Virus record (IMG/VR): IMGVR_UViG_3300001279_000031
Span: 22,340-86,339 of that record
DNA length: 64,000 nucleotides
Strand: one strand, 5' to 3'
DNA from: a virus
Shown here: positions 23,128-43,979 of the stretch, piece after piece
Layout of the letters: every line of letters begins with the position of its first letter
How positions within the stretch are numbered: the stretch's first letter is position 1
The notes under the pieces: model-generated
What the model was told of the DNA's origin: nothing
Database searches by the model: none
What the model saw: only the letters and a program-made list of their open reading frames with translations
Program-made: the position numbers and the translations under genes

Positions 23128-23199
23128 AAAAATATCGAGCTCCAACCATAGCTCTATATATTATTATATTATATTCCAACCAAATAATAATCAAGAATT

Positions 23200-23703: not shown

Positions 23704-23707
23704 ACCA

Positions 23708-24331: not shown

Positions 24332-24339
24332 TCTTGATA

Positions 24340-26160
24340 AATTTATTTATTAATAATAATAGTTGTTATAGGTTTTCAATACTATTGGTAGTCATTAACT
24401 ACGAATAGTCTCAAATCAATGAGTTACCCTAAACATTTACTACTTCAATGATTCTTTCAAATCATTAATAGCTAGTAAGCTATTAAATGACTATTAATTA
24501 TGATTTTTTGTAATTTTTTATGACTTTTGTAATTTTTGTATAAAAAGAATTTATAAAGTGTGATATACGATTAATTTTTAAACTAGTTATCGTGGTTGTT
24601 ACCTTAATAACGGGATTCATTCCGAAGAATTGAATAGCTACGCCCATCTTTTAAAAACAATGTACCTTGTTGTCATGAATTTCGGGTACATGACTACCAG
24701 TATAGCTGCCGGAATTACCCTCACCCACTATATGAAATTGTTTATACTGCATGAATATATTTCTATATTCTACGAATATCTAGGATTTCAACCTATTGCC
24801 AGAGTCTACAGGCTTGCTTCTGCTACCTTAACACATGTTAGTACGACGTACTTTGTGGATATACTTATGACGGTTCAGCGCACATATTTTACCTTACATT
24901 TGTGCCCTACTAATAAGTTTAGATATATTTTTAGCGATACCGGTCGGCAGTTAAGTTAGTCTGACTTGTTAATTAAAACTATCAGGGGACTTCTAACTAA
25001 GACGAACTTTTGGTTATATTACTTTAGCTTCTTTAGCTATTTCATAATGAGTTTTCCTTCTCATGACACATACTAATATATTTATGTAAACTCTTCTTTC
25101 ATTGTTTACCGTATTTAGTACTCTAGTCATATTTATACTTTCTCTTCTTATTGGATATAAGCGATGCTCACTATAAATACTTACATGTATTTTAATTGCT
25201 TGTAATTACAATAATTATTTAAAGACAGATAATTACTGCCAATGTATTTTATAAATATTAATAAAACTTATCTTATCTTAAGAAATATATCGAATTAGTG
25301 ATATAGCCCACTTGTTCGGCTTTTGTTTGTCATTTATTTTTGACTATAAACTTATTTTATATTCCGCTTCGTTTACTATGCGGTAGTTCCGTAACATAAT
25401 AGTAATTTTCTCAGCCAATGTTTATTATATTCTGCTCATTATTTATAAGTATAAGATAGGTTAGGCACAAAGTGATTAGCTATCTGTTCTTCCTACTTAT
25501 AAGACATTGCTACCATCCCCTTAAACGGAGAAGTATGGGATTAAACCATTAATTTTTATATAGACCCTGTATTTACCATACAGCTATAGTTCACAACTAT
25601 AGTCCTTGTTTACTTTATTAAATGTTACTTCACATCCAAGCTTCATAAGTACAAGTTCTTTTATAATATAGTTTATTATAAACATGGACAATTTTACACT
25701 TATTTACAATATAAGTCATTAACCAATGCACTGAACACTCTTGTGATAATAATTTTTATAGTTACTTATGGACAGCAACTTTTCTACGTTATCTGTATTA
25801 CAATGATAATATAAGTGTTGTTGGACTTTTTCACTTATTGCTACTCGTGTTTAGACTATAAACCCTTTTTGATATTGTAATTGAAATTACTAACGGTTTA
25901 TATTTATTGTCAAGGTTTCTTTCCATCTATTATCATTAATGGCGCTACATAGCGATGCCTTACTATCATATCAGGATAGGTTTGCATAAACTGTTTATCC
26001 GATACCTTTGTAACATTAGGATTATTCTGTATATATCACCAATCGGTTCTCATATATACTTGCGTGCGTTACGTCCATTCACGCCTTATACATAGTTTTT
26101 CATACTATATATATTTCGTAGCTACTTTTGTGCTGTACACATATCTTACTACCCAGTTTG
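24340..26160 (-). ncRNA. Putative large structured non-coding RNA region
   Basis: ~1.8 kb with no credible ORF and many hairpins whose loops read UUCG or GNRA on the - strand. Boundaries are unknown. Confidence 0.5.
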
Positions 26161-26168
26161 TTTAATTG

Positions 26169-26573
26169 TTAAATAGGCTCTTTAATGATACAAGCCCGTA
26201 TTAATGAATCTAATCCAAGAGTATCCAAATTCTTGTTTATATCTATACTATCGTGTCGGTGTATAGAACGACTTACCGTTTTCCATTTTGTTATATAGAT
26301 TGGAAAATATCTATATTTTGTTCTCCATCTAATTACCACTTTAGATAAAGAGTTATTATTCACACTTACAGTGCGATTTAATGCATTCTGTACATTTACT
26401 TTACCTGTTCTCGATATATCTATATTGAGAGGTAATTCCAATTGATTCGGTGTAAATGAAGCTGTTTTTATTTCTACTGCATTTGCCGTAGAAGGTTTTG
26501 TTATTATATTACCAATAAAACTACCGGCTATTATAAAAACAATACATATTAGATAGGACTCAAACTTCCGCAT
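26169..26573 (-). CDS. Membrane-anchored or secreted hypothetical protein
   Basis: N-terminal hydrophobic segment. Confidence 0.65.
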   Translation of the reverse strand: MRKFESYLICIVFIIAGSFIGNIITKPSTANAVEIKTASFTPNQLELPLNIDISRTGKVNVQNALNRTVSVNNNSLSKVVIRWRTKYRYFPIYITKWKTVSRSIHRHDSIDINKNLDTLGLDSLIRACIIKEPI

Positions 26574-28111
26574 ACATCTTTAATTTTATTACGAAGTTTA
26601 TCTATAAATGAAAAATCCTTATCAATTGTAGTTCGAGCATCTAATGGCTTAAAATAATTAGCAATTTCATTAAGTTTTTCACTTATTGATTTTTTATCAT
26701 CTTCTGTTAAAGTGTTATTATCTAATCTATTTTTAACATCTTTAGGAAAATAAGTAGTCGTTAAAAGTCCTAATGTCATTTTGTCAGCTGCGACACTTGG
26801 ATCTACAACACGATTTTTATCTTTATCATGCGTTGTAGCTTTTACATAATTTTTTAGCATCGTATCAACATCAAACAATGGATTTAATAAAAAATTCAAT
26901 TCAGGCATTGCACTCATTTCATGCGATATCTCCTGTATGCTAGGTGTTGTTTTTATTTTTTCACCACCTGTTTGTGTATAAACAGGATCACCTGCTTTAT
27001 CTTTTATTGCATTGCCATCTTTATCTTTTACTTCAGTTTTAACGATTGGAGTATATGATAATTTTTCTATTGCTTTTTCTTTAGAACTAACTTCAACCAA
27101 TGATGCTACTAAATCGGCTATCGTTTCATCTGAGGTACTTTTAGTTTGGAAGGCCTTTTTAACAAGTAAAAATGAGCTGATTGGATTTTTCGCATTCTTA
27201 ATATTTGTCCGAACAAGGCTGGACATACCGTTGATAAGAAAGGAAGTTCCAACAATTTTACATAATTCTTGTATCAAATCACCTATTGTAGCTTTTTTTG
27301 CTTCATCTTTTGCGTTTTCATCTTTTGCGTTTTGTACATCAAATGCTCTTAAAAAGGTTATAGCGTCAAACAAAGTAGCACCATTCATATATTTACTACC
27401 ATGTAATATTGCATTTAAACTATCAGGCAATTGCTCTTTAGTTATTTTCGTAGCATCTTTTGTTTCAATGCCATTAGCAATATCTGTTTTAGCTTTTTCA
27501 TCTTTCTTTTCATCGGCCTTTGCTTCTTTTGCTAATTCTTTAGGAACTTTAACATCAGTAAATTTTAGTTCTAACTGATCATCATTCTTATTTTCAAGTT
27601 GCTTCGGTGTCATATCTGGCAGTGTTACGCCAAATAAAGCACACGCATCCTTAAGAGCATTTGTAGTATGCTTATTTAATAATAATTTTGCTTCATAATC
27701 ATTATTAACAGCGCCTCTTAATTTAATAAATGATAAAACCATAATCGGATCCATCATCGAATCAGCCATTTCTACCAATTTAGCATCTGGCTTTTTACCA
27801 CCTTTATCATTGTCCATATAACGACGTTGACTAACGTATGCTAGTCTTGATAAAGTATCTAAAGATATTTTACTATCTTCAATGCTTTTTTGTAGATCTG
27901 TCGTAACATTAGTACCAATACTGATTGGTGCTGGCAATGGTTTTTTTACTTCTTCTGCTTTAACAGTTTCAACTTTAACTGTACTAGTTTTAGGAGTACT
28001 TTCCTTTTTATCTACTTTCTCTACAATTACAGGTTCTTTTTCTGTATTATTTGCAGGAATTATTTTAGGTGCATTGTTTTTATTAACGCCCTTGTTATGT
28101 TTCTTACTCAT
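26549..28111 (-). CDS. Large Lys/Asp/Glu-rich hypothetical protein
   Basis: 520-aa ORF without TAG. Confidence 0.8.
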   Translation of the reverse strand: MSKKHNKGVNKNNAPKIIPANNTEKEPVIVEKVDKKESTPKTSTVKVETVKAEEVKKPLPAPISIGTNVTTDLQKSIEDSKISLDTLSRLAYVSQRRYMDNDKGGKKPDAKLVEMADSMMDPIMVLSFIKLRGAVNNDYEAKLLLNKHTTNALKDACALFGVTLPDMTPKQLENKNDDQLELKFTDVKVPKELAKEAKADEKKDEKAKTDIANGIETKDATKITKEQLPDSLNAILHGSKYMNGATLFDAITFLRAFDVQNAKDENAKDEAKKATIGDLIQELCKIVGTSFLINGMSSLVRTNIKNAKNPISSFLLVKKAFQTKSTSDETIADLVASLVEVSSKEKAIEKLSYTPIVKTEVKDKDGNAIKDKAGDPVYTQTGGEKIKTTPSIQEISHEMSAMPELNFLLNPLFDVDTMLKNYVKATTHDKDKNRVVDPSVAADKMTLGLLTTTYFPKDVKNRLDNNTLTEDDKKSISEKLNEIANYFKPLDARTTIDKDFSFIDKLRNKIKDVCGSLSPI

Positions 28112-28183
28112 TATTTACGATTTTTTTTAAATTGATTTTAAAATGTTTATTAAAAAATGGATACTCTTTTACTAACTAAGAAT

Positions 28184-28567
28184 TCATGATGTGTTAATGA
28201 ACTTAGTTGGTTGATTACGCGCCATAGTTGACGTAGGAACTATTAATGTATTAAAAGCAATCGTGTTTACTTTCACATTAAATGAATTAATCGCTGAATA
28301 CAAAGATACAATTGTCTTATTATCTAATTTCTTATCAAATAAATCATATGTATCTACTACTAGTGCATTAAATGCATTACTAATAGGTATTTGTTGACTA
28401 GTAAGTTCTTCTTGCTTTTTTGAATTCCTACCTATGACAGTTCCAATAACTATACCAACAACTAAGCAAAATAATAATTTCCAAAATATTTCATTGCTTC
28501 TGTTGATTCTAGCTATTACAAAACAGGCGACTAAACCTATTAAGACTAAAACCGTTTGTAGTAACAT
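28184..28567 (-). CDS. Two-TM membrane protein
   Basis: Two N-terminal hydrophobic helices; directly downstream of the sigma factor. Confidence 0.65.
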   Translation of the reverse strand: MLLQTVLVLIGLVACFVIARINRSNEIFWKLLFCLVVGIVIGTVIGRNSKKQEELTSQQIPISNAFNALVVDTYDLFDKKLDNKTIVSLYSAINSFNVKVNTIAFNTLIVPTSTMARNQPTKFINTS

Positions 28568-28574
28568 AATGTTA

Positions 28575-29120
28575 TTAATTTTTGTAATTTTTGAGAATTT
28601 TTCTTAATTTTGCTTTAGATCTACTTATGTCACTTTTTACAGTGCCAATAGGGATCCGCATTAATTTACTAATCTCTCGATATGGTAGATTACTATAGTA
28701 GTATAATGTTAAAATCTTACGTTTAATAGGACTTAACTGGCACATACCTTTTTCTAGGAGTTCGCGTAACTCTAGATTTATTATATCAGCATCTGTATTA
28801 TTACAAGATACTTCTATATCTCCTATATTATCATCAATATCAACATTACGATTGCTGTTTTTTAATGATCTAATATAATCTATGCATGTGTTTACTGCTA
28901 TAGCTTTTAGCCAAGCTTCAAAACTTATATCATTTATATATGTATTTAATTTAAGCCATGCTTTTAAGAACGTACGATTGAGTACTTCATCTGTTAGACT
29001 AGTATCTTTCATAATATAACTAATGTTATTACGTATCTTATCTTTATACATATTATAAAGTTTTGTAAATGATATTTCATCTTTATTCTTAGCGTTTTCG
29101 ATTAAGATTTTCTCATTCAT
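28575..29120 (-). CDS. ECF (sigma-70 group 4) RNA polymerase sigma factor
   Basis: Region 2 DEVLNRTFLKAW...FEAWLKAIAVNTCIDYIR; region 4 LPYREISKLMRIPIGTVKSDISRSKAKLR. Confidence 0.9.
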   Translation of the reverse strand: MNEKILIENAKNKDEISFTKLYNMYKDKIRNNISYIMKDTSLTDEVLNRTFLKAWLKLNTYINDISFEAWLKAIAVNTCIDYIRSLKNSNRNVDIDDNIGDIEVSCNNTDADIINLELRELLEKGMCQLSPIKRKILTLYYYSNLPYREISKLMRIPIGTVKSDISRSKAKLRKILKNYKN

Positions 29121-29129
29121 TTAACTGTT

Positions 29130-29609
29130 TTAAAAAGGAAGATGTAGGATATTTGTAGCGTAATAATTACGCCACTCATATTCTGCATCTAAAATATTAA
29201 AATGTAAATTTGCCATTAATTGTGCTTTTTCATTGTGTGTCAATACTGGTAATTTACTTACCATATTACATGCTATTTTTTCAAATACTAAATTTGTTTT
29301 TCTAGTATTTAAGTCAATACACAATGATATGTTTTTGTTAACAAAAGCACAAATATTCCAGAATTTATCTTTAATGAGGTAATTTTGATCACATAAAGAT
29401 AATAGTTGTGTAATTGTAACTGTTTTATCTTTTTTATCATCGAAACATATATTACTGTTTGCTAAATAACGATACTCATTATATAATTCATTTAATGACA
29501 TTGTAAAAAATCTAGCTGTAGTACGTAAAAATACATATTTATCAGCTAGATTTAATTGTGAAATATCTGGATATCCCTTCCAAAAATTCCTATAATCTTT
29601 AAACATCAT
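29130..29609 (-). CDS. Hypothetical protein
   Basis: 159-aa ORF ending LPF. Confidence 0.65.
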   Translation of the reverse strand: MMFKDYRNFWKGYPDISQLNLADKYVFLRTTARFFTMSLNELYNEYRYLANSNICFDDKKDKTVTITQLLSLCDQNYLIKDKFWNICAFVNKNISLCIDLNTRKTNLVFEKIACNMVSKLPVLTHNEKAQLMANLHFNILDAEYEWRNYYATNILHLPF

Positions 29610-30099
29610 ACTCTTTATTATTTATGTATTTTTCCATTAAGGAAAATATAAAATCTGTAATGCTTATAGACCAGCCATTATCTAATTGCATTCTATTTTT
29701 AATGTAAGATAATGGTAATTGTTCTTTTTTAAGAACTAAAAATTGTTTAATCCAAATATTGATATCGTCCTGCGTTACTTTTTGTGGATCTAATTCATTA
29801 TAATCTATAAATAAAGGTGATTGTGGTAATTCTATTCCTTCAAATAATGGAATAACGAATATTTTCCTAGAAGTTTTGTCATTAAAATTGTAAGTTGATA
29901 ACGCATCGATTTCTTCTTTTGTTAAGGCAACAATATTGCCCTTTAAAAATTCTCTAAAATCTATGCCATTTAATATTTTTAATAGAGAATTTCCAATTAT
30001 ATTTACTAAGAATATCCTATCTTGTAAATATATAATGTATTGTCCTTTATTCATTATGAAATATTTTATAGAACTTTTTACTAATAAAAGACGCGTCAA
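29599..30099 (-). CDS. Hypothetical protein (true start probably the internal ATG, MNKGQ)
   Basis: ORF in a tightly packed operon. Confidence 0.6.
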   Translation of the reverse strand: MTRLLLVKSSIKYFIMNKGQYIIYLQDRIFLVNIIGNSLLKILNGIDFREFLKGNIVALTKEEIDALSTYNFNDKTSRKIFVIPLFEGIELPQSPLFIDYNELDPQKVTQDDINIWIKQFLVLKKEQLPLSYIKNRMQLDNGWSISITDFIFSLMEKYINNKEYDV

Positions 30100-30229
30100 C
30101 TATATCTAAGTCATATGTACTTTGTATCGCTAAAGTAAATGTCGACTCGTTACTACATGATTTAGCTAATTTTTTTAAGTTAGCTTTTTCACCAGGTTTA
30201 TCAAAAAAGGTATATTTAATTACTTTCAT
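30047..30229 (-). CDS. Small hypothetical protein
   Basis: 60-aa ORF overlapping both neighbours. Confidence 0.55.
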   Translation of the reverse strand: MKVIKYTFFDKPGEKANLKKLAKSCSNESTFTLAIQSTYDLDIVDASFISKKFYKIFHNE

Positions 30230-30747
30230 CGTACATTTTCTCTATAATTATCTACATCATCTATTATTTGACAATAATTTACTTTTAATTTTTTAAATTC
30301 ATCAAATGCTATTGGACTTAATATTCCTACGGGATAATTATAATTAGTATATTCAAATAATTTATTTATACGTGCAAATCTAGCATTTCTGATATTAGTA
30401 GATAGTAAAAATATGTTACTATATCTGTTAATATCTTCATATAAAATATTAACATATGCTATATATACCTTTTGATTTTTTAAGGCATATATCCATTCTT
30501 CCGGCATCCGTTTCTTTATGTATCCACGAAAGCCTTGTTTGCTTATTTTCTTTGATCCAACCATTTCTTTTTTATTTGATATTTCTAATTCATCAAGACT
30601 ATAATATTTATGATTTGATAATGTTATACTTATATTATTATATAATTCATTACTACTAATCATTTTAAGTACTATGCTAGTACCTATAACCTGTAAATAT
30701 ACAGGTTTTCTACTTATAATTATAGATATATACTCTTCATATGTCAT
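30226..30747 (-). CDS. Hypothetical protein
   Basis: 173-aa ORF. Confidence 0.65.
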   Translation of the reverse strand: MTYEEYISIIISRKPVYLQVIGTSIVLKMISSNELYNNISITLSNHKYYSLDELEISNKKEMVGSKKISKQGFRGYIKKRMPEEWIYALKNQKVYIAYVNILYEDINRYSNIFLLSTNIRNARFARINKLFEYTNYNYPVGILSPIAFDEFKKLKVNYCQIIDDVDNYRENVR

Positions 30748-30963
30748 AATAATAATAATATTATTAATAAAATTAATATAGCACTTAAATACTAAAGATA
30801 TACATGCTATATTAATATTTTATAATTTGATATTATGTAAAATATTGTAAGATTTTAATTTTAGTAGTGTGCGATCCAGTAGGACTTAACCATCAAGGGT
30901 CTCTACTAAAGGTTATTAATCTTAGATACTTAGGATACATCAATATCAAATCTTTTGATAGAT

Positions 30964-31542
30964 TTACCTATTTTTTCCAACATGATAACTTGCATTATTA
31001 GCTACACTTTCAGTGTTACTAGCTACACTTTTATCTGTAACATCGTGCAACTGTTGAGCGTCTTCCGGTAAGACTTCATTCTCAGTTTTACTTTTCCAAC
31101 TGCTAAAATATGTAGCTACATCTTTCGAAGCAAACAATTCTTGCAATTGCGAAATTAACAATGCTGTTTCTGTATTTAAATGATTTAAACCATTTGAATA
31201 CACTTTTTTAATCTCTTCTGATTTATTATAATAATCTCTAACAGATAATGTACCTGTTTTAAAAGTTTCACCGAGCTCGGTTAGACTCTTTAAACGGATT
31301 TTAAAGACTGTTTCTTCACCACGTTTATATCTAAGTAAAATAAGTTGACGACATCTCTCAAACTTATTTTCACTTAAAATCATAGAAGCTTGTTCAATCT
31401 TTATTTCTTGCTCCTTTTTTGTAATTTGTTCTGCAGCAGCTTTCAACGCATCCACATTCATTAATGTTTTTTTGGTGATCTGCTCTTTTATATCACCATC
31501 AACATCTAAAGACATAAAGTCATTTGTCTTTTTTTCTTCCAT
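30964..31542 (-). CDS. Coiled-coil hypothetical protein
   Basis: 192-aa ORF with the leader ttatcaaaATG. Confidence 0.7.
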   Translation of the reverse strand: MEEKKTNDFMSLDVDGDIKEQITKKTLMNVDALKAAAEQITKKEQEIKIEQASMILSENKFERCRQLILLRYKRGEETVFKIRLKSLTELGETFKTGTLSVRDYYNKSEEIKKVYSNGLNHLNTETALLISQLQELFASKDVATYFSSWKSKTENEVLPEDAQQLHDVTDKSVASNTESVANNASYHVGKNR

Positions 31543-31553
31543 TTTGATAATTT

Positions 31554-31739
31554 TTAATTGTTAATACTTTTATTTTGATAATATTGTTTTAATAATTTAT
31601 TTTTAGAAATACCAAATAATTCACGTATAGTGGATGGATTTGTTTTTCTAATTTCAATTATATCTGCATTTTTTTTAGTAGCTTTATAGCTACTATATAA
31701 ATGTGTTCTATCCTCTTTCAATTTTAATTTTTTTATCAT
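31554..31739 (-). CDS. Small basic hypothetical protein
   Basis: 61-aa ORF whose leader and first six codons form the duplicated 54-bp repeat. Confidence 0.6.
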   Translation of the reverse strand: MIKKLKLKEDRTHLYSSYKATKKNADIIEIRKTNPSTIRELFGISKNKLLKQYYQNKSINN

Positions 31740-31774
31740 TTTAATAATTTTAATTTAAAAGTAAGCAGATTAGC
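31721..31774. repeat. 54-bp direct repeat, copy A (left flank of host insert)
   Basis: Matches 34736-34789 at 51 of 54 positions without gaps. Confidence 0.95.
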
Positions 31775-31904
31775 CACCATCGGTTGTTACTTTATACGGT
31801 AATAGAAAGGTTGTCCAACCCAGTGCATAACTAACAAGACCTAATGTTATCAACAAATAGTCCCTAAATTCACGAAGGATAATAGTCTTACCAATTTTAC
31901 TCAT
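31770..31904 (-). pseudogene. yitT: Truncated 5' stub of a host YitT-family membrane protein gene
   Basis: MSKIGKTIILREFRDYLLITLGLVSYALGWTTFLLPYKVTTDGG* resembles the Bacteroidales YitT N-terminus (recalled pattern DYxxIxLG...GWxxFLLP...TTGG). It is cut off where the repeat begins. Confidence 0.75.
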
Positions 31905-31921
31905 ATAATATATTCTTATTT

Positions 31922-34714
31922 TCAGCCGACTACAACGTTCACAATCTTATTCGGAACAACGATAATCTTCCTGATATTCTTCCCGGCAATCCATTTCTGT
32001 GAATCGTCATGCGCAAGTACCGTCTTTTCAATGGCTTCGCGGTCAATGTCGACAGGGAAATCAATGGAGAAACGAGCTTTGCCGTTAAACGAGATTGTGT
32101 ATTTAACGGAATCTTCTTTCAGATATTCTTCATTGCACACAGGCCATTGTGCATCGCAAACGGATGCCGTATGTCCCAATGCTTCCCATAACTCCTCGGC
32201 AATGTGCGGGGCAAACGGAGCAATAAGCACAACCAAGTCACTCAACACCTGCTTGTTGTTGCACGTCAAAGCTGTGAGTTCGTTTACGCAAATCATGAAT
32301 GCACTGATAGAAGTGTTGTATGAGAAACTCTCTATATCTCCGGTTACTTTCTTTATCAGTTTGTTAATGCTTTTCAACTCTTCTTTCGTGGCTTCACCGT
32401 CGACGGGGATAAACTCGTCGGCCTTGTTCCAGAATAAGAACCAGAATTTGCGCAAGAAACGGTGAACACCGTCTATTCCGTTAGTATCCCACGGTTTCGA
32501 TTGCTCAACAGGCCCGAGGAACATCTCGTACATGCGCAGTGTGTCGGCGCCGTATTTCTCAACAATCATATCGGGATTAACGACGTTGAACATCGACTTG
32601 CTCATCTTTTCAACAGCCCAACCGCAGACATACTTGCCATTTTCCAATACAAACTCTGCATTGTTATATTCCGGTCTCCACTTCTTGAAAGCCTCAACGT
32701 CCAATATATCATTCGATACAATATTTACGTTAACATGTATTGGCGTAGTATCATATTTGTCTTTCAACCCGAGAGAAACAAAAGTGTTTGTATCTTTAAT
32801 TCGGTAAACGAAGTTGCTTCGTCCCTGAATCATTCCCTGATTAACCAGTTTTTGGAACGGCTCTTCCTTAACCGAAACTCCTAAATCAAATAAAAACTTG
32901 TTCCAGAAGCGCGAATATATCAAGTGCCCTGTTGCATGCTCGGTACCTCCCACGTACAAATCGACATTCTGCCAATAACGGTCGACCTTTTCCGAAACCA
33001 ACGCCTTATTGTTATGCGGATCCATGTAACGAAGATAGTATGCAGATGAACCTGCAAAACCCGGCATAGTATTGAGTTCCAACGGATAACCTTCTTTTGT
33101 CTTCCAGTTCTTGGCGCGTCCCAATGGCGGTTCGCCGGTTTCCGTCGGTAAATATTTGTCTATTTCAGGCAATTCAAGAGGCAGTTCGTCATCACTTAAA
33201 ACATGAGGTATTCCGTCTTTGTAATACACCGGGAACGGTTCACCCCAATAACGTTGGCGACTAAAGATGGCATCGCGCAGGCGGTAGTTTATCTTTACTC
33301 GCCCGAGATTATTCTCGGTTACGTACTTCTTTGTTGCTGCAATTGCCTCTTTTACTGTCATGCCGTTGAGATTAAGTTGTCCTTCCTTCTCTTGTCCCGG
33401 CTTGGGTGAATTCATCATTATGCCGTCCTTGGCATCAAAGCTCTCCTCGCTGACGTCGCATCCTTCAATCAGCGGACGAATTTCAAGGCCGAACTCTTTG
33501 GCAAAAGCATAGTCGCGACTGTCGTGCGCCGGTACGGCCATAATGGCTCCCGTGCCGTATCCTGCCAATACATAATCGCTAATCCAAATGGGAATAGCTT
33601 CATTTGTCAACGGATTTATAGCATACGAACCTGAGAATACTCCCGTAACCTTGCGGTCGGCAATACGTTCACGTTCGGTTCTTTTCTTTGTTCTTTCCAA
33701 ATATGCCTTCACGTCTGTTTGTTGAGCCGGAGTAGTCAACTCGGCAACCAACTCACTTTCCGGGGCAAGTACCATGAATGTAACACCGAAGATAGTATCT
33801 GCACGCGTAGTGAAAATAGTAAACTCAACGTCGCTGTCTTTTACTTTGAACTGCATTTCAGTACCTTCGCTACGCCCTATCCAGTTACGTTGTGTCTCTT
33901 TAAGCGAATCTGTCCATTCGATAGTGTCCAATCCGTCAAGCAGGCGTTGGGCGTATGCCGACATACGCAAGCACCATTGGCGCATCTTCTTCTGCACAAC
34001 AGGATAACCGCCGCGCAACGAAATTCCTTCAACAACTTCATCATTGGCAAGCACCGTACCTAACTTCGGACACCAGTTAACAACCGAATCTCCAAGATAA
34101 GCTATACGACAATTCATCAAAGCATCGCTTTTTGCCTTTTCGTCCTTGGCTTTCCATTCGTCGGCAGTAAACAAAAGTTCTTCGCTGCAAGCAGCGTTAA
34201 TGCCTTCAGTACCTGTGGTTTCAAACTTCTCTATAAGTTTATCTATCGGTTGGGCTTTGTCCAGGTCTTTATCATAATAACTGTTGAACATACGGATGAA
34301 AGCCCACTGTGTCCAGTGATAATATCCGGGGTCGCACGTACGTACTTCACGGTCCCAATCGAAAGAAAAGCCAATCTTATCCAATTGGCTGCGATAACGG
34401 TTTATATTGTTTGTTGTTGTAATTGCAGGATGTTGTCCGGTCTGAATGGCATATTGTTCTGCTGGAAGCCCGTATGCATCATATCCCATCGGATTAAGAA
34501 CATTAAATCCTTGTAACCGTTTGTAACGGGCATAAATATCTGTAGCAATATATCCCAACGGATGCCCAACATGCAAACCCGCACCGGAGGGATAAGGAAA
34601 CATATTCAGTACATAGTATTTCTTCTTTGTTTCGTCTTCTACAACATGGTACGTTTTATTCTCGACCCATTTTTTTTGCCATTTCTTTTCAATCTCGCTG
34701 AAATTATATTCCAT
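31922..34714 (-). CDS. leuS: Leucyl-tRNA synthetase of Bacteroidales host type, intact (930 aa)
   Basis: [14 protein letters not shown] (HIGH), KMSKS, CP1 editing motifs FTTRADT and [15 protein letters not shown]-terminal IVNVV; visibly GC-richer than its flanks. Confidence 0.98.
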
Positions 34715-34735
34715 GATGACCGTATTTTATTATCT

Positions 34736-34789
34736 ATTTTAATTTTTTTACCATTTTGATAATTTTAATTTAAAAGTAAGCATATTAGC
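34736..34789. repeat. 54-bp direct repeat, copy B (right flank of host insert)
   Basis: Matches 31721-31774 at 51 of 54 positions. Confidence 0.95.
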
Positions 34790-35123
34790 ATATTTGCATA
34801 CCTTATTTTGCTAAATTCCCATGTCCTTCATTCAAATCACGTTTGAACATGATTGCCGTCAAATAGCTTGTATTATATATAATATAATATTAGGGGTCTG
34901 GAATGCTTACCAATTACTTTATTCATATGATAATAATTAATAATTATTTGTTAATGAAGAATATTTCGTTATTCATCATCATTGTAGCGCATCTTTCTAT
35001 CCTTTTTTTTAAAAGGATTTAATTTAGCATGTTTTGCTTTAGTGTGAAAAGTAGGATTATTATCGTTACCACTTCTCTTTTTTTTGTCCTTAAAAGTTTT
35101 GCTCATGACACATAACTTTATTC

Positions 35124-35783
35124 TTAATACAGCATTAAATATTGAAAATATCCAAGTGACTTATGCTTAATAGCTTGTTTACAATCACCAAATATTGGTG
35201 AATTTATAACAGTCGCACCATCTTTTATAGCTCCAAGTAACTGTAAATATGTTAAATTAAACTTAAGATCTGTAAAATTCTTATTCCATTCTACAATTTC
35301 TCGTGAAACGTTTCCAAATTCTGCTGGACGTGTTACTTTTATACTATCTATACCAACATAATCACAAAAATACGAATATTTATTATTTCCATTAAAATTT
35401 GCATGAACTGAATATTCTATATAAAGAGTAATACAAACTTTATACTTTTTGCCATCTATGATTTTTTCAATATTTTTTGAAAATTCTGCATGTTTGTCAT
35501 CATTTATGGCAATTCGATCAAATCCCATTTTATAAAATACACCAAAATCTAATAAAAAATTAGTAGTTATAGTTTTTGGTGAATGCCAACGATGATTTAT
35601 AAACAATCGTTGTTTAATCATTTCTTTATTAGAAAGCATAGCTAAATCAAGTGATAGATTTTCATTAAAATCTTTTACTATATTTGCACGTATACCTTCA
35701 ATTGGATAAGGACATTGTTTGTATTTTACTAATTGTCCTTTGTTGATGGAAACCATACACTTATTTTTATCAACAATCCTCAT
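35124..35783 (-). CDS. Hypothetical protein
   Basis: 219-aa ORF. Confidence 0.7.
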   Translation of the reverse strand: MRIVDKNKCMVSINKGQLVKYKQCPYPIEGIRANIVKDFNENLSLDLAMLSNKEMIKQRLFINHRWHSPKTITTNFLLDFGVFYKMGFDRIAINDDKHAEFSKNIEKIIDGKKYKVCITLYIEYSVHANFNGNNKYSYFCDYVGIDSIKVTRPAEFGNVSREIVEWNKNFTDLKFNLTYLQLLGAIKDGATVINSPIFGDCKQAIKHKSLGYFQYLMLY

Positions 35784-35788
35784 AATTT

Positions 35789-36292
35789 TTATATTTTATA
35801 ATTATTCCGTAGAATTATACGAAAAGTAAATTCATTTATTTGTTTAGAAAAGTTACTTTTCATATATGCGATATTAAACGCAGTAGGATAATCGTGGATA
35901 AACAACAAAATATTTTTTATTAACATTTTTGTATCATCATCGTGCTCTTCGTTAATAAATTTTAATATTCTTAAAATATATATCCATTCTTTTGGAATAG
36001 ATTTTGTAAACTCTTCTACGATTACAAGTGATTTTATTTTTTTATATAATTTATCCAACATTGTATCAATCGTATTTCTTTCTGCAGTTGTACGATGTAT
36101 CATTCGAATATGTCCGGATTCATCGATGCTGATGTTTTTTATTTCTCTAGCATCAAAAATCCTTATTGATCCATTTTTACCACGAAATTGTGTATTCGCG
36201 GTATTACTAATTGATTTAGCAGATTCATCAGTAATCGATTCTGCTGGTATTTGTGGATCGTCAATGCAAATTAAAACAAAGGCGCGTTTCAT
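35789..36292 (-). CDS. Hypothetical protein
   Basis: 167-aa ORF. Confidence 0.7.
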   Translation of the reverse strand: MKRAFVLICIDDPQIPAESITDESAKSISNTANTQFRGKNGSIRIFDAREIKNISIDESGHIRMIHRTTAERNTIDTMLDKLYKKIKSLVIVEEFTKSIPKEWIYILRILKFINEEHDDDTKMLIKNILLFIHDYPTAFNIAYMKSNFSKQINEFTFRIILRNNYKI

Positions 36293-36293
36293 A

Positions 36294-36653
36294 TTAATAC
36301 GAATTATTTTTTCTTATTGATAATATACTATCTATATATTTATTTAACTTAGCATCATAATCTACACGTTTATAGAATTTATAATGTGTTTTATAATTAG
36401 CAACAATAAATTGTTTTGTTATTGGTACTTTACTTTTTACCAAAGTATCAATTATAACTGCTAAACAGTTATTACTAATTGTATAATATACAGAATCTGT
36501 TAAAAACTGTGCTTTACTAGCATTTCTATCTAATATTGTAGATGAAATGATTTCTTTAGTTGTCTTTTTATGTTGGCAACTACTAAGATTAAATACCATT
36601 ACAATTGCAAATATAGCAACTGTAAACATTAAGAATTTTCTAAATTTACTCAT
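36294..36653 (-). CDS. Putative lipoprotein
   Basis: Basic N-terminus, hydrophobic core and LSSC lipobox. Confidence 0.65.
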   Translation of the reverse strand: MSKFRKFLMFTVAIFAIVMVFNLSSCQHKKTTKEIISSTILDRNASKAQFLTDSVYYTISNNCLAVIIDTLVKSKVPITKQFIVANYKTHYKFYKRVDYDAKLNKYIDSILSIRKNNSY

Positions 36654-37003
36654 AATTTATTGATTAAATTAATAATTTTATAAAATCTAATAAAAGATAA
36701 GTATGAACTTTACTAATAGCATAACTTCTACATTATTAAACTTATTAATTGTTCATACTTATCAGGATATATATATTAATAATTGAGGACTATTTAAAAG
36801 TATTACTATATTCACATACCATAATACTAAGTAGGTTATACAACTATATTCACCAACTTTAAAACGAATAATTATGTCAAACATTAGTCTGTTAAAAAAC
36901 AGATTGTATTCACACACTATCTATTTATAACTAGTGCCCTTTAAAAACATATATAACAAAATAGTTATTAAAAAACCATTCACGGTTAATTAACTTTTTA
37001 ATT

Positions 37004-37300
37004 TTAATTTATTGCATTATCTTCATTTTCATTTACTAATTCTTTATTGATTAAAAAGTAAATATAATTTATTGCAAATAATAGAATTATTGAAGATATA
37101 AATGCAATTATACTTATCATTAATATCAAATGAACATTTATTTGATTAAAAAAGTCCATTAAACATTTAAGATAAAAGCTACTAAATATTGACGTGATGC
37201 CAACTACTCCTGCACTAATTAATATTAATATAATAATATCTAAGCTTAAGAATAAAGATATTAATAAAATAGTGTCAATAACTTGCGTTGTTATTTTCAT
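37004..37300 (-). CDS. Small membrane protein
   Basis: Two long hydrophobic stretches. Confidence 0.5.
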   Translation of the reverse strand: MKITTQVIDTILLISLFLSLDIIILILISAGVVGITSIFSSFYLKCLMDFFNQINVHLILMISIIAFISSIILLFAINYIYFLINKELVNENEDNAIN

Positions 37301-37363
37301 TATGTAAATTTAATTATTATAAAATATACACAACTAATAATTATACATAGAATCATAAAAGCT

Positions 37364-37648
37364 CTAATCATTTTCACAATACTCAAAATTACTTTTGTTC
37401 CATTCCTTTGTGTCATAATTATATACTATACTTTTATCATTGATGTCTGTATTTTCATCAATGGCAATACAAATAAAACATTTACTTCCAACATTACTAT
37501 TTACTAATTTTAATAGATCAAAACACATACAATTACATTTATTTTTAAATATAGCGCAATCTTCACATTTTGTAAATGTACTATTAATTTTAAGTCTATA
37601 TACTTTATTATTAAGTATAATTCTAGGCAATTTTCTAAATTTACTCAT
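37364..37648 (-). CDS. Small Cys-rich hypothetical protein
   Basis: CEDC...CNCMC...C pattern, possibly metal-binding. Confidence 0.6.
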   Translation of the reverse strand: MSKFRKLPRIILNNKVYRLKINSTFTKCEDCAIFKNKCNCMCFDLLKLVNSNVGSKCFICIAIDENTDINDKSIVYNYDTKEWNKSNFEYCEND

Positions 37649-37652
37649 AATT

Positions 37653-37889
37653 TTATCGATTACGTCTATTAAGTTGTGCAGCTCTAGCTATACAATTATA
37701 ATCAAGTTCTGATGTTTCATCATCGATATCAACTGTTATTGTTTTACCAATTAGTTTATTCGCTTGATATAATTTAAGTAATTGATTATCAATGGAATTA
37801 GTATTACCTTTATCAGTAATTATATGTAATACTTTCATACTACCGATATCTTCACTTGTTACATTTATTATTTTTGCTGATGTTTGCAT
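37653..37889 (-). CDS. Hypothetical protein
   Basis: 78-aa ORF in the operon. Confidence 0.6.
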   Translation of the reverse strand: MQTSAKIINVTSEDIGSMKVLHIITDKGNTNSIDNQLLKLYQANKLIGKTITVDIDDETSELDYNCIARAAQLNRRNR

Positions 37890-37894
37890 AATAT

Positions 37895-38305
37895 TTATAA
37901 TATATCATTATCTACAGTCTTTAAAAACTGTAATTTATATATAACTGTATATTCTGGATAAATCAATGACAAGAATGCATCATTGTTCATACTTACCCAT
38001 TGTATAGTACATAACTCATTATTACTATCTGTGCCTTTTTGTGTATATGTTATACATAACGTATTATGTATAGATGAATAACTTTTTACAGGTACATCGT
38101 AATTAATTGTTATAGGCTCTTTGCAATCAATATGTAGCATATTATTATCTAAATCAACAAGTATAATGATTTTGTTTACTTCCCAATTAGTAAATTGAGA
38201 ATCAACAATTTTATAACATGTTTCTGTAGATTGCCATACATTGACTTGAGATTTTGCACATATACTTATCATACATATACAAAAAAATAATATAACTTTT
38301 TTCAT
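37895..38305 (-). CDS. Secreted hypothetical protein
   Basis: Signal peptide MKKVILFFCICMISICAKS followed by Q, typical of Bacteroidetes. Confidence 0.7.
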   Translation of the reverse strand: MKKVILFFCICMISICAKSQVNVWQSTETCYKIVDSQFTNWEVNKIIILVDLDNNMLHIDCKEPITINYDVPVKSYSSIHNTLCITYTQKGTDSNNELCTIQWVSMNNDAFLSLIYPEYTVIYKLQFLKTVDNDIL

Positions 38306-38307
38306 TT

Positions 38308-39108
38308 TTATAATTTTTTTATGATATCTCCTCCATATGAATCTTTAGTAATTTTAATAAATTCATGGATATTCATATAATCATGCTGAAGATCAATTTC
38401 ATGATCTCTAGCGAATGATTCTCTTCCAGCCTTGCAACTCCCGGTAAGAATATGATGCCAAATAAATAATTCAGATACTGGATATTTCTTGTCAAAGTCG
38501 CTAAAATGCTTCTTAAACTTATCTATCCTTTCTTCCTCCGAGAAATCATCATATAGCTTTTCACGAAGTGATGCAAATGCTTTGTGCAAAGTTAATCCGT
38601 GAGCAAATTTATTATCTTCCTTTACTATAAAGCAAGGAATCAATGTCAGGTCATTTTGTAGTATACATCCTTTGGCTATATTATTTTTTACAGAAGTAAT
38701 TATTGTTGGGAGGTTATCTATTCTATACACTTTATTATTATTTATTGAAACGATTCCATAACTAGAGTAATTATTAACGATATCGCCATTACCATATTCA
38801 TTACCACATCCATTACTATCGCCATTACCATAACCATTACTATAGCCATTACCATATCCATAACCACATCCATAACCATTACTATCGCCATTACCATTAC
38901 CATTACCATCACCTAAACCATCACCATAACCATTACCATAGCTTGAACCTTCTCCTGAACCGCTTCCTTTACCAAATCCATCAGTATATCCGGAGTTATA
39001 ACCATTACCATAACCTGAATCATCATCATCATCATAAATATAGTTAGATTCATCGTTAGAGAAATGACTGTTGTTTGTTTTTATGAATTCATCTATTGTG
39101 CTGTCCAT
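38308..39108 (-). CDS. Gly-rich (GxGxG repeat) phage protein
   Basis: G-Y/N/D-G repeats followed by FAHGxTL and WHHILTGSCKAGR; a pattern recalled from Bacteroides phages. Confidence 0.75.
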   Translation of the reverse strand: MDSTIDEFIKTNNSHFSNDESNYIYDDDDDSGYGNGYNSGYTDGFGKGSGSGEGSSYGNGYGDGLGDGNGNGNGDSNGYGCGYGYGNGYSNGYGNGDSNGCGNEYGNGDIVNNYSSYGIVSINNNKVYRIDNLPTIITSVKNNIAKGCILQNDLTLIPCFIVKEDNKFAHGLTLHKAFASLREKLYDDFSEEERIDKFKKHFSDFDKKYPVSELFIWHHILTGSCKAGRESFARDHEIDLQHDYMNIHEFIKITKDSYGGDIIKKL

Positions 39109-39428
39109 GGTTTAACACTTTCAATCGATTCTATTGCTTTTTCTGTACAAAGAATTGTCTCTATTTCATCCGATATTTCTACAGATGGGACATAAACTGT
39201 AAATTTACAATTATCTTTTTTCGATGTCCCATCAACAGCCAACTGGTTAATGGTTGCAGCACCAGCCCAGTACCATATTTTACGGGCATTGGTTAATCTT
39301 GCATTATGACCATCTTTTGCTTCCAATGTTCCATAATATACGCCAGATCTATCTCCACGTACTATAACTTTCTTTTCTAAAAAATTTGATTTCATAATTT
39401 TAAAATTTATAATAAATATTCTTTCCAA
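39093..39428 (-). CDS. DUF6948-like Sm-fold protein (true start probably MKSNF)
   Basis: IVRGDRSGVYYGTL...ARKIWYWAGA; usually found upstream of the Gly-rich gene. Confidence 0.7.
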   Translation of the reverse strand: MERIFIINFKIMKSNFLEKKVIVRGDRSGVYYGTLEAKDGHNARLTNARKIWYWAGAATINQLAVDGTSKKDNCKFTVYVPSVEISDEIETILCTEKAIESIESVKPWTAQ

Positions 39429-39742
39429 ATTTCAATAAAAGTTTGGCTTCCTAAATAGAGAGCTGTTTCTTTATTAAAAGAGCCAAGCCAAAATCTAATA
39501 GATGAGTTCATAAATATTAAGTCATAAGAAAAGCGAGCTTCAGTACAAGCATTAAGATCTTTTATATTATTCCACCAAGGAAAATATATTCTTTCTTCTC
39601 TTGTATGTCCAATATTCAATGCTTCGCTAATTGTACATAACTTATAATAGGCTTGCACATTTTTTGGCATATTATCCAAATAACGTGGTTCATCTTTACC
39701 TAAAAGAGTGAGAGCCTTTTCATAACTTTTTACTTTTCTCAT
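39407..39742 (-). CDS. Hypothetical protein
   Basis: VKSYEKA...AYYKLCTISEALN...YFPW, a pattern recalled from Bacteroides phages. Confidence 0.7.
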   Translation of the reverse strand: MRKVKSYEKALTLLGKDEPRYLDNMPKNVQAYYKLCTISEALNIGHTREERIYFPWWNNIKDLNACTEARFSYDLIFMNSSIRFWLGSFNKETALYLGSQTFIEIWKEYLL

Positions 39743-39911
39743 TTTTATTTGTAATATATGTAAATATCATACAAATACCTTTTATTATAACGATAATGGA
39801 TATAATTGAATCTATTATAAACCATTTAACATTAAGTATAAATAAAACACCTAATACAAACAACAGTACTCCTATACATAGTATTGTTATTCCATTATTA
39901 AATTTTTTCAT
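39720..39911 (-). CDS. Small two-TM membrane protein
   Basis: Hydrophobic 63-aa ORF overlapping the next gene. Confidence 0.55.
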   Translation of the reverse strand: MKKFNNGITILCIGVLLFVLGVLFILNVKWFIIDSIISIIVIIKGICMIFTYITNKNEKSKKL

Positions 39912-39943
39912 ATCAAAATTATTTATATTTAAAAAGCTATATA

Positions 39944-40144
39944 TTAGAAAGGTTGTTTTGTTATGAATGTACGTTTACAGTGATTACACCGGCAAAGGAA
40001 ATACTCACATTCTTCATCACCTTCAATGCTATGAACAATACTAATATCATCACTTTTACAGTAAGGACAACTTGTTTTTTTACATACTATCAATATTAAA
40101 AAAACAATACACATTACGAAGATTAACAATAATAAATACAACAT
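39944..40144 (-). CDS. Membrane-anchored zinc-ribbon protein
   Basis: TM helix followed by CPYC...CNHC. Confidence 0.65.
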   Translation of the reverse strand: MLYLLLLIFVMCIVFLILIVCKKTSCPYCKSDDISIVHSIEGDEECEYFLCRCNHCKRTFITKQPF

Positions 40145-40205
40145 AATTTTCTATCTTTTTTGTTGATTAATAATTCTATCTCAATTCAAGATTTGTTGTT
40201 TACAG

Positions 40206-40241
40206 TAATGCAGTAAGTATTGTTACATACTCACTGCATTA
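40206..40241 (-). terminator. Hairpin after the early gene 40246-40869
   Basis: taatgcagt...actgcatta with an inner agtat/atact stem. Confidence 0.55.
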
Positions 40242-40245
40242 TTTA

Positions 40246-40869
40246 CTATCGACGTTGATAACCATTTTGCGGTTGTCTCTGTTGTTGTTGTTGAGGTTGT
40301 TGTTGAGGTGCTATATTCTTAGCAGTTTCTTCAGCAATCGTATCTTCTTCTTTAGCAACAGCTGTACTTGCAAACTCACAGGACGAATTGAACAATCCTT
40401 GTGCAAGTATCTCTTTACTATTGCCACGTTCATAGACATACTTGCAAGCATCACTATCGTAGTACTGCTTACAAAATACTTCCAATGCATTATACAATCT
40501 ATGACCTCCATTAAGATCATCGATGTAATCACCTTTATGATGCATGTTACCAGCGCCATCAACCAAGTCTGACATATAACGTCTATAGAACGGTTTGTCA
40601 TAAGTCACGACCTCAAATGTTCCATGCATTATACTCATCTCTTCCGGTAGTGGTTTATCTTCTTCAGCATCGCCACCTTTTTCTTGTGAAATATACTTCT
40701 TGAATGCATTTACTATACCAGCACTAAAGAAGTTTTGTTTCCTCTCATTTTCACTCCAAAAGTTGTCAGCATTCTTCAGAGTGACTTGCAAATATTCATT
40801 ACCAGCGTTTGCATGCGCTGTAGCCGGAATCGTATTGATCTCAGCATCTATTACTTTAAACTTTGCCAT
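40246..40869 (-). CDS. Acidic early protein with Gln-rich tail
   Basis: 207 aa, preceded by the early motif; ends TAG-TAA. Confidence 0.8.
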   Translation of the reverse strand: MAKFKVIDAEINTIPATAHANAGNEYLQVTLKNADNFWSENERKQNFFSAGIVNAFKKYISQEKGGDAEEDKPLPEEMSIMHGTFEVVTYDKPFYRRYMSDLVDGAGNMHHKGDYIDDLNGGHRLYNALEVFCKQYYDSDACKYVYERGNSKEILAQGLFNSSCEFASTAVAKEEDTIAEETAKNIAPQQQPQQQQQRQPQNGYQRR

Positions 40870-41138
40870 TTTTTGTATTATTTTTATTTAATATTATCCT
40901 TTTTTAATAGTGGTTGTTCATTTTTTATTTTATCCAAATTCCATAGACTATATACAATATTCTATCATGTAAAGTCTATCTTGTTTGGATGATTTCTATT
41001 CGTTTTATGATAGTTGTTGTTCATTTTTTATGTTACCAAAATCTATCATCTCTCATGCGATTTCTATCCATTTTCATGTATAAAGTAGTATATACTGTGA
41101 ATACTACATACTAGGACATCGTACAATGCCCCTCACAC

Positions 41139-41229
41139 GCATTCTCGTGCGTTCTAACGAACTTTCTATGCGAAATGGTATAACTATACCAGACGACATG
41201 AGATCGTGCGTTAGAACGCTTTAAAATGC
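41139..41229. repeat. Concentric dyad-symmetric DNA element
   Basis: gcatt/aatgc, gcgttctaacg/cgttagaacgc and tggtata/tatacca are all centred on ~41184. Confidence 0.75.
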
Positions 41230-41256
41230 ATTTATTTAATTAAATAATACAGTCCC

Positions 41257-41589
41257 CTAATCCGGGAACTGCATTACCATACTTGCGGCGATCTTCTCGA
41301 AAAAATCGCAATCAAGATCTTCTAATTCTATGACATCGTACAAATCAATGCCACGACTATCAAGCTCTTCGGCGAACTTGATATACTCTACGACAACCTC
41401 CTCACGGAAGTCTCCATCGTATTCATCAATTTCATCATAATCATTATACCTTCCTAGAGCCCATTTAATTGGGTTCCAGCCTTCGTCTAATATATGGCAT
41501 ACACCATCCATTAGACGATTATCATGACGACTTCTTGTAGCCATCATGGTATAAGCCTCCTCGATAGAAGCTTTTAATACGTTGTTCAT
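41257..41589 (-). CDS. Highly acidic early protein, paralogue 1
   Basis: 110 aa; aligns end to end with 41698-42018. Confidence 0.85.
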   Translation of the reverse strand: MNNVLKASIEEAYTMMATRSRHDNRLMDGVCHILDEGWNPIKWALGRYNDYDEIDEYDGDFREEVVVEYIKFAEELDSRGIDLYDVIELEDLDCDFFEKIAASMVMQFPD

Positions 41590-41697
41590 AATTTTATTTA
41601 TTTAATTGATTAATATTATCATACTCAAATAGTTGTTGTTCATTTTATATTCTATCCATTTTCATGGATAAAGTGGTACTGTGAATAATACAGTCCC

Positions 41698-43145: not shown

Positions 43146-43169
43146 TTTGTGTTGGTGGTTTACAAATAC

Positions 43170-43420: not shown

Positions 43421-43443
43421 CTTATTCAAGTAACATACTACAT

Positions 43444-43962: not shown

Positions 43963-43979
43963 TTTTTAATATTAAAAAT

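Follow-up and report, generated by a model that had tools for sequence, protein, structure and literature searches.

How a complete bacterial gene for leucyl-tRNA synthetase (LeuRS), leuS, came to stand between two copies of a viral leader sequence is the question raised by a locus in the IMG/VR virus record IMGVR_UViG_3300001279_000031. The record, 86,339 bp in length, is classed as linear and about 86% complete, and the window analyzed here is a 64,000-nt stretch of it, bases 22340-86339. By far the most probable answer, in our judgment, is that a tailed phage captured leuS and the beginning of the adjacent yitT from its host very recently through illegitimate recombination, with a 13-nt microhomology at one joint and a blunt join at the other, with no mobile element involved, and that the gene is at present probably a passenger. 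Three states of the locus exist in public data, i.e., the donor at 99.8% identity, the empty site, and the filled site.

The element in question is a GC-rich block of 3,015 bp that holds an intact leuS and a 43-codon stub of yitT and is placed between two 54-bp copies of a phage leader. GC contents of 0.438 and 0.472 were found within 32001-34000, versus 0.217-0.294 in the 1-kb bins of 28001-32000 and 35001-38000. The encoded LeuRS scores 918.9 bits against TIGR00396 leuS_bact (cut-off 548.4), carries the catalytic, editing, and anticodon-binding domains according to Pfam (PF13603 editing domain, E=1.7e-58), and matches the PDB LeuRS chain 1h3n_A at E=4.7e-181. HVGH and KMSKS, which we take to be the signature motifs (HIGH-type and KMSKS) of class I aminoacyl-tRNA synthetases (aaRSs), are readable in its translation, and judging from these features the gene appears to bear all the marks of an active enzyme. 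The YitT-like stub is read as an open reading frame (ORF) of 44 codons, 31770-31904 on the minus strand, whose TAA at 31770-31772 is supplied by phage sequence, and its score against Pfam PF02588 is 17.8 bits, under the cut-off of 24.3. A repeat search returned a single family of direct repeats, 31718-31774 and 34733-34789 (57 nt, 53/57 or 93% identical, ungapped, spacing 3015), within which the 54-bp repeat, 31721-31774 and 34736-34789, is identical at 51/54 positions. The ORFs inside the insert are leuS and the yitT stub only, with no transposase there; the repeat search found no inverted repeats pairing or bounding the insert ends, and no integrase was found among the neighboring proteins tested. 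These results agree with a sequence-only reading of the stretch, which had described a GC-richer block with an intact 930-aa LeuRS and a 44-codon YitT-like stub, gapless 54-bp flanking repeats consisting of the leader and first codons of a still intact phage gene at 31554-31739, and the lack of a transposase or integrase, the last of which stands for the insert and for the neighbors tested.

The origin of the block was traced to a bacterial chromosome. A first LeuRS scan of species-representative genomes gave, among the matches listed (at least 600), a best match of 80% at the amino acid level and 73.8% at the nucleotide level, which suggested an old or orphan gene, but this idea was overturned by a later protein search and a family-wide genome search. 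In the protein search of a large metagenome collection, LeuRS was matched at 927/930 by P0004, 920/930 by P0126, 918/930 by P0128, and 908/930 by P0125, while P0006 and P0127 matched at 905/930 plus a 9-residue insertion; P0004, P0005, P0125, and P0128 are 96-99.7% relatives, and P0127 sits on a 1.45-Mb NCBI contig that is a bacterial chromosome. The 9-residue insertion, at about residues 407-410 (window ~33490), is polymorphic in the donor lineage: the 939-aa forms P0006, P0124, and P0127 and that of the genome G036 carry it, and the phage LeuRS is the short 930-aa form without it. G036, a 3.5-Mb species-representative Bacteroidaceae genome, emerged from the DNA search of 401 genomes of the family containing Phocaeicola coprocola (99 unscored; 294 of the 302 scored genomes matched), showing 94% identity over query bases 1-2958 of 2963, with the next best genome at 77%. 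By blastn, the block is 94.47% identical to the G036 locus L084 over 3001 columns, from window position 34748 down to 31775, and since this homology extends from the leader of leuS through the gene and the 17-nt spacer and across the stub, the block is a plain collinear piece of chromosome. The expectation that yitT follows leuS in Bacteroidales was also confirmed with tblastn: in 67 of the 82 Bacteroidales loci, an ORF homologous to the stub starts 9-183 nt beyond the end of leuS and in the same orientation; no stub homologue was matched in the other 15, two of which end at most 444 nt from leuS. The comparison with G036 gave a dS of 0.22, a dN of 0.012, and an omega of 0.053, which is ordinary bacterial purifying selection. 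Among phages, tblastn with LeuRS found 43 records (best full-length match 47%, huge-phage homologues ~30%), most of which look like host contamination or huge-phage homologues, and among viral contigs two loci were found, at 78% and 67%.

The capture can be dated, in relative terms, by wetland metagenomes. All the public runs that contain the stretch are of this kind: three runs of sample S1, which is likely the source sample of the record, include 95-97% of the words of the stretch, compared with 32-46% for three runs from other studies. X4 record 10, a bacterial contig of 17,394 nt, spans 31775-34747, where it differs from the window at 7 of 2,973 nt (99.76%), and beyond either end its sequence equals that on the two sides of leuS-yitT in L084. 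X6 record 25 (10,530 nt) likewise covers the insert together with host flanks, with 49 differing letters. The GC content at third codon positions (GC3) is 0.471 in the window leuS versus 0.452 in L084, and the window-side changes relative to L084 comprise 18 GC-to-AT and 36 AT-to-GC, i.e., leuS has not drifted toward the AT-rich composition of the phage. The few differences from the X4 contig and this lack of amelioration indicate that the capture is so recent that the gene bears almost no trace of it. Both the host origin of the block and a recent capture, as the sequence-only reading had proposed, are therefore well founded in the G036 alignment, the X4 contig, and GC3. The phage seems to live alongside two or more donor-like strains; in X1, two host-type loose ends one letter apart (34747/34748) leave the window at the upstream junction, and a further allele with a depth of 5.26 is seen at 33338-33353.

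The way in which host and phage DNA were joined was read from a three-way comparison, on the minus strand, of the filled site, L084 of G036, and the start of the phage gene. The features of the locus are as follows:

34749..34789, minus strand: 41-nt phage-only duplication, copy 2, with the leader and the region around the start codon; now upstream of leuS
34734..34754, minus strand: mini-ORF MVKKLK, six codons, stop TAG, created by the joint (read from the sequence)
34736..34748, minus strand: upstream junction, 13-nt microhomology AAAAAATTAAAAT (three-way comparison)
34715..34735, minus strand: native host leuS 5' leader, 21 nt, identical to L084
31922..34714, minus strand: leuS, 930 aa, uninterrupted, stop TGA, no in-frame TAG, host-derived, 94.5% nucleotide identity to L084
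31905..31921, minus strand: leuS-yitT intergenic spacer, 17 nt, host sequence, no terminator-sized gap (sequence comparison)
31775..31904, minus strand: 5' part of yitT, 43 codons, host-derived, 95.3% amino acid identity to the gene after leuS in L084
31774..31775, minus strand: downstream junction, blunt, no microhomology (three-way comparison)
31734..31774, minus strand: 41-nt phage-only duplication, copy 1, at its native position ahead of the phage gene (repeat and three-way comparison)
31554..31739, minus strand: phage gene, 61 aa, intact, function unassigned, leader and first codons duplicated, 96.4% nucleotide identity in the empty-site contig L090 (see below)

At the upstream junction, the filled site runs in the order of phage leader, ATG, one more codon, AAAAAATTAAAAT, the 21-nt native leader, and leuS, and AAAAAATTAAAAT is present both in the 5' leader of host leuS and, as codons 2-6, in the phage gene. 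This 13-mer occurs twice in the 3.5-Mb genome of G036, once at the leuS leader, and the window has it in the two repeat copies and nowhere else (0.17 expected); given such rarity, a joint at that spot is not a matter of chance. On the phage side of it, 34749-34789 has three mismatches to 31734-31774, and the host locus L084 is unrelated there. At the downstream junction, the host sequence ends after ...GGTG at 31775 and the phage resumes with GCTAAT..., with zero shared letters, and it is exactly at 31775 that the host contigs in X1, X4, and X6 leave the window, with a shared loose end in which yitT continues. The point of re-entry into the phage lies 54 nt upstream of the exit point, and as a result each side of the insert has 41 nt of phage-only sequence together with the 13-nt overlap, and the phage gene is intact. 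The "unusually long target duplication" of the sequence-only reading must therefore be given up, since microhomology accounts for 13 of the 54 bp and the other joint is a blunt one, which leaves only 41 nt of true duplication of phage sequence.

The joint also bears on how leuS could be expressed. A host TATATTTG box, which fits TAnnTTTG, presumably the Bacteroides -7 promoter consensus, sits just upstream of the captured piece and was left behind, and the 430 nt upstream of leuS contain no TAnnTTTG. With the promoter box lost, any expression of leuS must ride on phage transcription, and leuS would be transcribed by read-through of the leftward gene run of the phage. The mini-ORF MVKKLK ends 19 nt before the leuS ATG, and, if it is translated, read-through of its TAG would carry the frame on to a TAA overlapping the start codon of leuS; suppression of TAG in late infection could, from the look of the sequence, alter leuS translation over time.

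The uninterrupted recipient site was found in related phages. In X5 record 20, a 731-nt contig from a different study, 31154-31768 is joined to 34784-34898, so that exactly 3015 nt are skipped, with 115 and 615 letters on the two sides of the joint. A metagenome scan with the 24-nt core of the repeat gave the 2,162-bp JGI contig Ga0055513_10003407 (L090), which has one leader only and aligns to 36661-34736 (93.8%), followed immediately by 31774-31551 (96.4%). Related phages with an empty site and one copy of the leader, for which the sequence-only reading had proposed a search, therefore exist in both data sets. The flanks of the filled phage and L090 differ by 3.6-6.2%. Because flanks have diverged by 4-6% but the insert lies only 0.24% from host DNA, the empty form is the older state. 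At the three variable sites of the leader, L090 has C,T,G, copy 2 has A,C,G, and copy 1 has C,T,A; the L090 leader is copy-1-like in its 5' part and copy-2-like in its 3' part, the reverse of the pattern of a deletion product. Clean loss of the block by recombination between the repeats, as had been suggested, is possible, but the L090 leader is not a simple deletion product of this genome. The traits that mark microhomology-mediated capture, i.e., an insert collinear with the donor, joints of short identity or none, and a known uninterrupted recipient site, are all present here. Two further joints in X6, at 28495-31725, skip 1933 and 2587 nt with sides of only 20-21 letters and are probably spurious matches from other organisms.

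The depth of the contigs places the insert in the phage population. X1 record 1, an 11,062-nt contig with a depth of 19.4 and no differences, runs from the left flank to 38 letters past the downstream junction, and X1 record 8, a 16,780-nt contig with a depth of 23.4 and no differences, runs from the right flank to 30 letters inside the insert, 17 of which are host-unique. Unitigs of the phage allele inside leuS (records 4 and 6) have depths of 18.6 and 17.8, and that of the alternative allele (record 3) has 10.8. The depth of other X1 unitigs inside leuS, 473-853 nt in length, is ~28-31, roughly the 19-23 of the phage plus 10.8, which suggests that phage and host are k-mer-identical over them. 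The same host-type loose ends, at 31775 and 34747/34748, are found in the source sample. The two flanks in X1 differ in mean depth, 19.4 for 27000-31586 and 23.4 for 34923-39500, and this gap could come from a second phage variant sharing only the right flank or from an effect of averaging over contigs.

From these findings, we propose that a TAG-recoded tailed phage, which would infect a wetland Bacteroidaceae bacterium, took ~2.97 kb of contiguous chromosome from that host, beginning at about the leuS transcript start, passing through leuS, and ending in codon 43 of yitT. The first joint would have formed where 13 nt of the A/T-rich leuS leader equal codons 2-6 of the small phage gene, and the second would be a blunt, nonhomologous join at a phage position 54 nt upstream of the first. 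The replication machinery might have switched templates, from the phage to the host at the microhomology and then back to the phage, or a host fragment might have been joined to two different copies of the phage genome; the latter of these, or recombination with diverged relatives afterwards, would account as well for the repeats having three mismatches. In either case, leuS would have been taken because its leader carries one of the donor's two copies of the 13-mer, and the duplication would have happened to leave the phage genes intact. RNA-mediated capture was considered because the insert starts near the presumed leuS transcript start, and was set aside: the insert breaks off within yitT, and the joint is explained by the 13-nt identity.

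Some observations weigh against this explanation or against parts of it. A template switch and a break followed by joining are not distinguishable from the sequence. The evidence on junctions and depth consists of Logan contigs, not raw reads, with no read pairs or true junction counts, and the overhang of X1 record 8 into the insert is one letter below the 31-letter criterion for bridging. The filled form was found only in runs of the one sample, S1, and the absence of any empty-site joint from the X1 contigs, at a phage depth of 19-23, would also fit a selective sweep and not a neutral passenger. As for the host, neither G036 nor G064 contains a spacer-grade CRISPR match to 11800-31700 or 34800-54700; the best match of that search was 28 nt at 93% (E=0.009), and a cluster of three weak matches to the phage in G036:C11 has no repeat array there.

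Three other accounts of the block deserve comparison with its capture by illegitimate recombination. An assembly or library chimera of phage and host DNA, the outcome that the sequence-only reading had named as fatal to its own proposal, is very improbable. Host and phage do co-occur in the source sample, the summed depth of the insert (25-34) is above that of the flanks, and the filled form is confined to one sample, but the identities at the junctions, 13 nt and 0 nt, are too short to mislead a k-mer assembler such as that of Logan, where k=31. Moreover, a separate Logan assembly of X1 crosses the junctions with 0 other letters, the allele-specific leuS unitigs stand at phage depth rather than host depth, and a misjoin would not make a mismatched 54-nt duplication at a site that is contiguous in two related phages. 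The junction-crossing unitigs and the phage-level depth of the insert thus answer the concern largely, though with Logan contigs only. Hardly any more credible is the idea that the filled form is ancestral and that the empty-site phages lost the block through recombination between the repeats: a deletion of this kind could proceed through 54-bp repeats, and exactly 3015 nt are skipped, but the insertion is younger than the split of the phages if flank divergence is set against the distance of the insert from the host, and the C,T,G pattern of L090 is the reverse of that expected of a deletion product. The least probable of the three is a transposon, an integrase-driven island, or a cassette like the promoter/stem-loop (PeSL) elements, in which the repeat would be a target duplication, an att site, or the cassette itself. 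Direct repeats indeed flank the insert, which stands among small early genes of unassigned function, but neither a transposase nor an integrase ORF was found in or beside it, there are no terminal inverted repeats, and the insert is collinear chromosome that ends inside a gene. The 31-nt core of the repeat, with up to three mismatches allowed, is found at just two places in the window (0 expected from 100 shuffles), its 24-nt core occurs twice in the entire record, a 20-nt leader pattern, again with up to three mismatches, gives four matches of which two are the repeat copies, and the empty site has a single leader copy; against an att island in particular, only 13 of the 54 nt are common to the donor. 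The downstream gene, 30964-31542, has a similar leader (31531-31559, 2 mismatches in 20 nt), and this likeness suggests a translation-start context common to the gene run, not a mobile cassette.

Whether the phage gains anything from leuS is a separate matter, on which the mismatches between the repeats had been brought to bear. The repeat copies differ at 3/41 positions and the insert at 7/2,973 (Fisher p=2.6e-4; P=1.3e-4 for at least three mismatches at the insert rate), and with such unequal rates the mismatches cannot be post-insertion divergence at one shared rate. They fit the 4-6% diversity among related phages and are best explained by the participation of two parental phage genomes in the event or by later exchange of the flank with a relative. 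The sequence-only reading, in which the mismatches together with an intact leuS suggested retention of the gene, fails on this comparison, and leuS owes its intact state to its recent arrival, not to retention. Six of the seven differences from the X4 contig were examined; at all six the window state is derived with reference to G036, five of the changes are toward A/T, and three alter an amino acid (W202C, I251M, and A577V). Three nonsynonymous changes out of six give p=0.064 against an omega of 0.053 and p=0.11 against neutrality, neither of which is significant for these six differences. At LeuRS column 202, 126 sequences have Y in 107, W in 17, and C in 2 cases; W202C was considered as a sign of decay and rejected, as the depth in X1 suggests that the resident host carries C202 too. 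Indeed, the X1 depth (records 5 and 7) suggests that both C202 and V577 are common to the resident host. There is no measurable evidence for either retention or decay of leuS.

It is possible, if rather unlikely, that the capture is real and the extra LeuRS has been kept by a benefit, the filled genome having swept the S1 population by selection; the benefit might be a supply of Leu-tRNA for a TTA-rich genome, translation after host shut-off, or the bypass of a defense directed at LeuRS or tRNA-Leu. The lack of an empty-site joint in X1 despite the phage depth speaks for it, as does a gene that is complete with all its domains. TTA accounts for 56% of 230 Leu codons in eight phage genes versus 12% of 67 in leuS, so a benefit can be imagined, and aaRS genes are known in huge phages, as PMC7162821 describes. 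The insert is, however, too young for selection to be read from its seven differences, the amino acid changes among them (three of six) are compatible at the p values given above with constraint and with neutrality alike, and two of the three are probably also present in the resident host. In addition, the choice of gene has an explanation in the 13-mer, to which the donor-like genome has just two matches with leuS at one of them, related phages lack the leuS insert, and contigs cannot show that the empty form is absent. No RNA run is found among the public runs that hold the stretch. We regard a selective sweep in S1 as improbable, though not negligibly so, and somewhat more doubtful still is the fuller version, in which the filled genome replaced its leuS-free ancestor since a second LeuRS timed by the phage was advantageous and the repeat mismatches were perhaps favored as a hindrance to loss. 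If that version were true, a mid-sized phage would here be taking the first step in the domestication of an aaRS, observed only a few mutations after its origin. The simplest reading is that leuS is at present a passenger.

The record in which the block lies is that of a genuine tailed phage whose late genes are readable only with TAG as an amino acid. Two features outside the locus are relevant to this:

1-11514 and 49270-64000, plus strand: late genes with TAG as a sense codon (ORF translation)
48069-48138: tRNA with the anticodon CUA, 70 nt, just upstream of late genes

When TAG is translated as Q, ORFs of 693, 833, and 502 aa match the PHROGs families of the terminase large subunit, portal, and major head protein (E at most 1e-138), and the late-gene ORFs (2146, 1690, 693, 833, and 746+ aa) each contain 14-49 in-frame TAGs. 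The leftward gene run encodes DNA polymerase, a sigma factor, a DnaB-like helicase, and a primase-like protein, and the phage genome has a GC content of ~28% and a length of at least 86 kb. A long variable arm marks tRNA-Leu, and a pairing of LeuRS with the CUA tRNA was rejected because a tRNA of 70 nt has no room for such an arm.

Host DNA is joined to other DNA in a comparable way in homology-facilitated, or short-homology, illegitimate recombination, known from natural transformation and from the formation of lambda bio/gal transducing phages. As in those cases, one end here is a short identity, the other is without homology, and host DNA has joined a phage genome; unlike them, the anchor is only 13 nt and no integrase gene was seen in the window, and in contrast to lambda bio/gal no phage genes were lost, the outcome being a duplication of 41-54 bp, not a substitution. 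A close viral parallel is found in populations of the baculovirus AcMNPV, where, according to PMC4735498, host DNA enters viral genomes at 1-20 bp of identity or at blunt joints, and the insertions arise continually in infection, are mostly fragments of transposable elements, remain at low frequency, and are quickly purged. The present case shares with AcMNPV a host-to-virus transfer without a transposase through short-identity or blunt junctions, but AcMNPV is an insect virus, and what we describe is a bacteriophage that carries a whole essential housekeeping gene at whole-population depth, with the donor and the empty site known.

The aaRSs of huge phages, with genomes >200 kb, are described in PMC7162821 as related to, yet different from, those of the host, and in recoded phages, by bioRxiv 10.1101/2021.08.26.457843, aaRS genes are rare, the one reported being a TrpRS paired with a TGA suppressor. 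The likeness lies in a class I aaRS that originates from the host phylum in a phage that manipulates translation, with TAG as sense in late genes, and the difference lies in an identity of 99.8% to host DNA and in a LeuRS with no evident link to the 70-nt CUA tRNA. A viral leucyl-tRNA synthetase with a high pN/pS appears in a cold-seep virome (PMC10504277). PeSL cassettes are reported in PMC2839356 and PMC4122927 to shuffle genes in T4-type phages; the resemblance is a novel gene in an early-gene region bracketed by direct repeats of a regulatory leader, whereas PeSLs exist beforehand in many dispersed copies and the present repeat was made by the insertion and has two copies in 86,339 bp. Like morons and auxiliary metabolic genes, leuS is a host-derived extra gene between phage genes, but unlike morons it has neither a promoter nor a terminator of its own, as the TATATTTG box lies outside and the spacer is 17 nt, its age is near zero, and it may be a passenger. 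In the literature search, which was partial and covered no supplementary tables, no phage-borne LeuRS was reported beside its donor and empty site.

The case is a well-documented, unusually fresh example of a known process, not a new mechanism. The act of capture is seldom seen, as the donor has usually diverged, the junctions are eroded, and the empty site is not known. A phage of the lytic type can take 3 kb of chromosome through one chance identity of 13 nt and one blunt join, leaving a local duplication behind, and an intact "auxiliary" gene in a viral contig may accordingly be a passenger only days old and not an adaptation. Through the insert, an uncultivated and TAG-recoded phage is linked at the strain level to a specific lineage of Bacteroidaceae. 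The example helps in host assignment and serves as a natural experiment, and repeated sampling of this wetland over time would give a direct measure of whether captured DNA is purged or kept.

Close relatives of the phage itself were absent from the GenBank phages and viral contigs searched. Megablast of 28000-38500 against GenBank phages gave zero matches, none of 21 pattern matches to the flanking 192-aa protein was confirmed among viral contigs, and a 31-nt leader pattern had 0 matches in the same contigs; the 61-aa phage gene at the insertion site fell into no family of Pfam, PHROG, or NCBIfam. Outside the captured block, one other segment resembles the donor lineage: 246 nt at 42451-42696, in the region of a phage nuclease-like gene, are 69% identical to G036:C11:395295-395540 (E=5.7e-18), and this segment may be an older host-derived gene from the same lineage.

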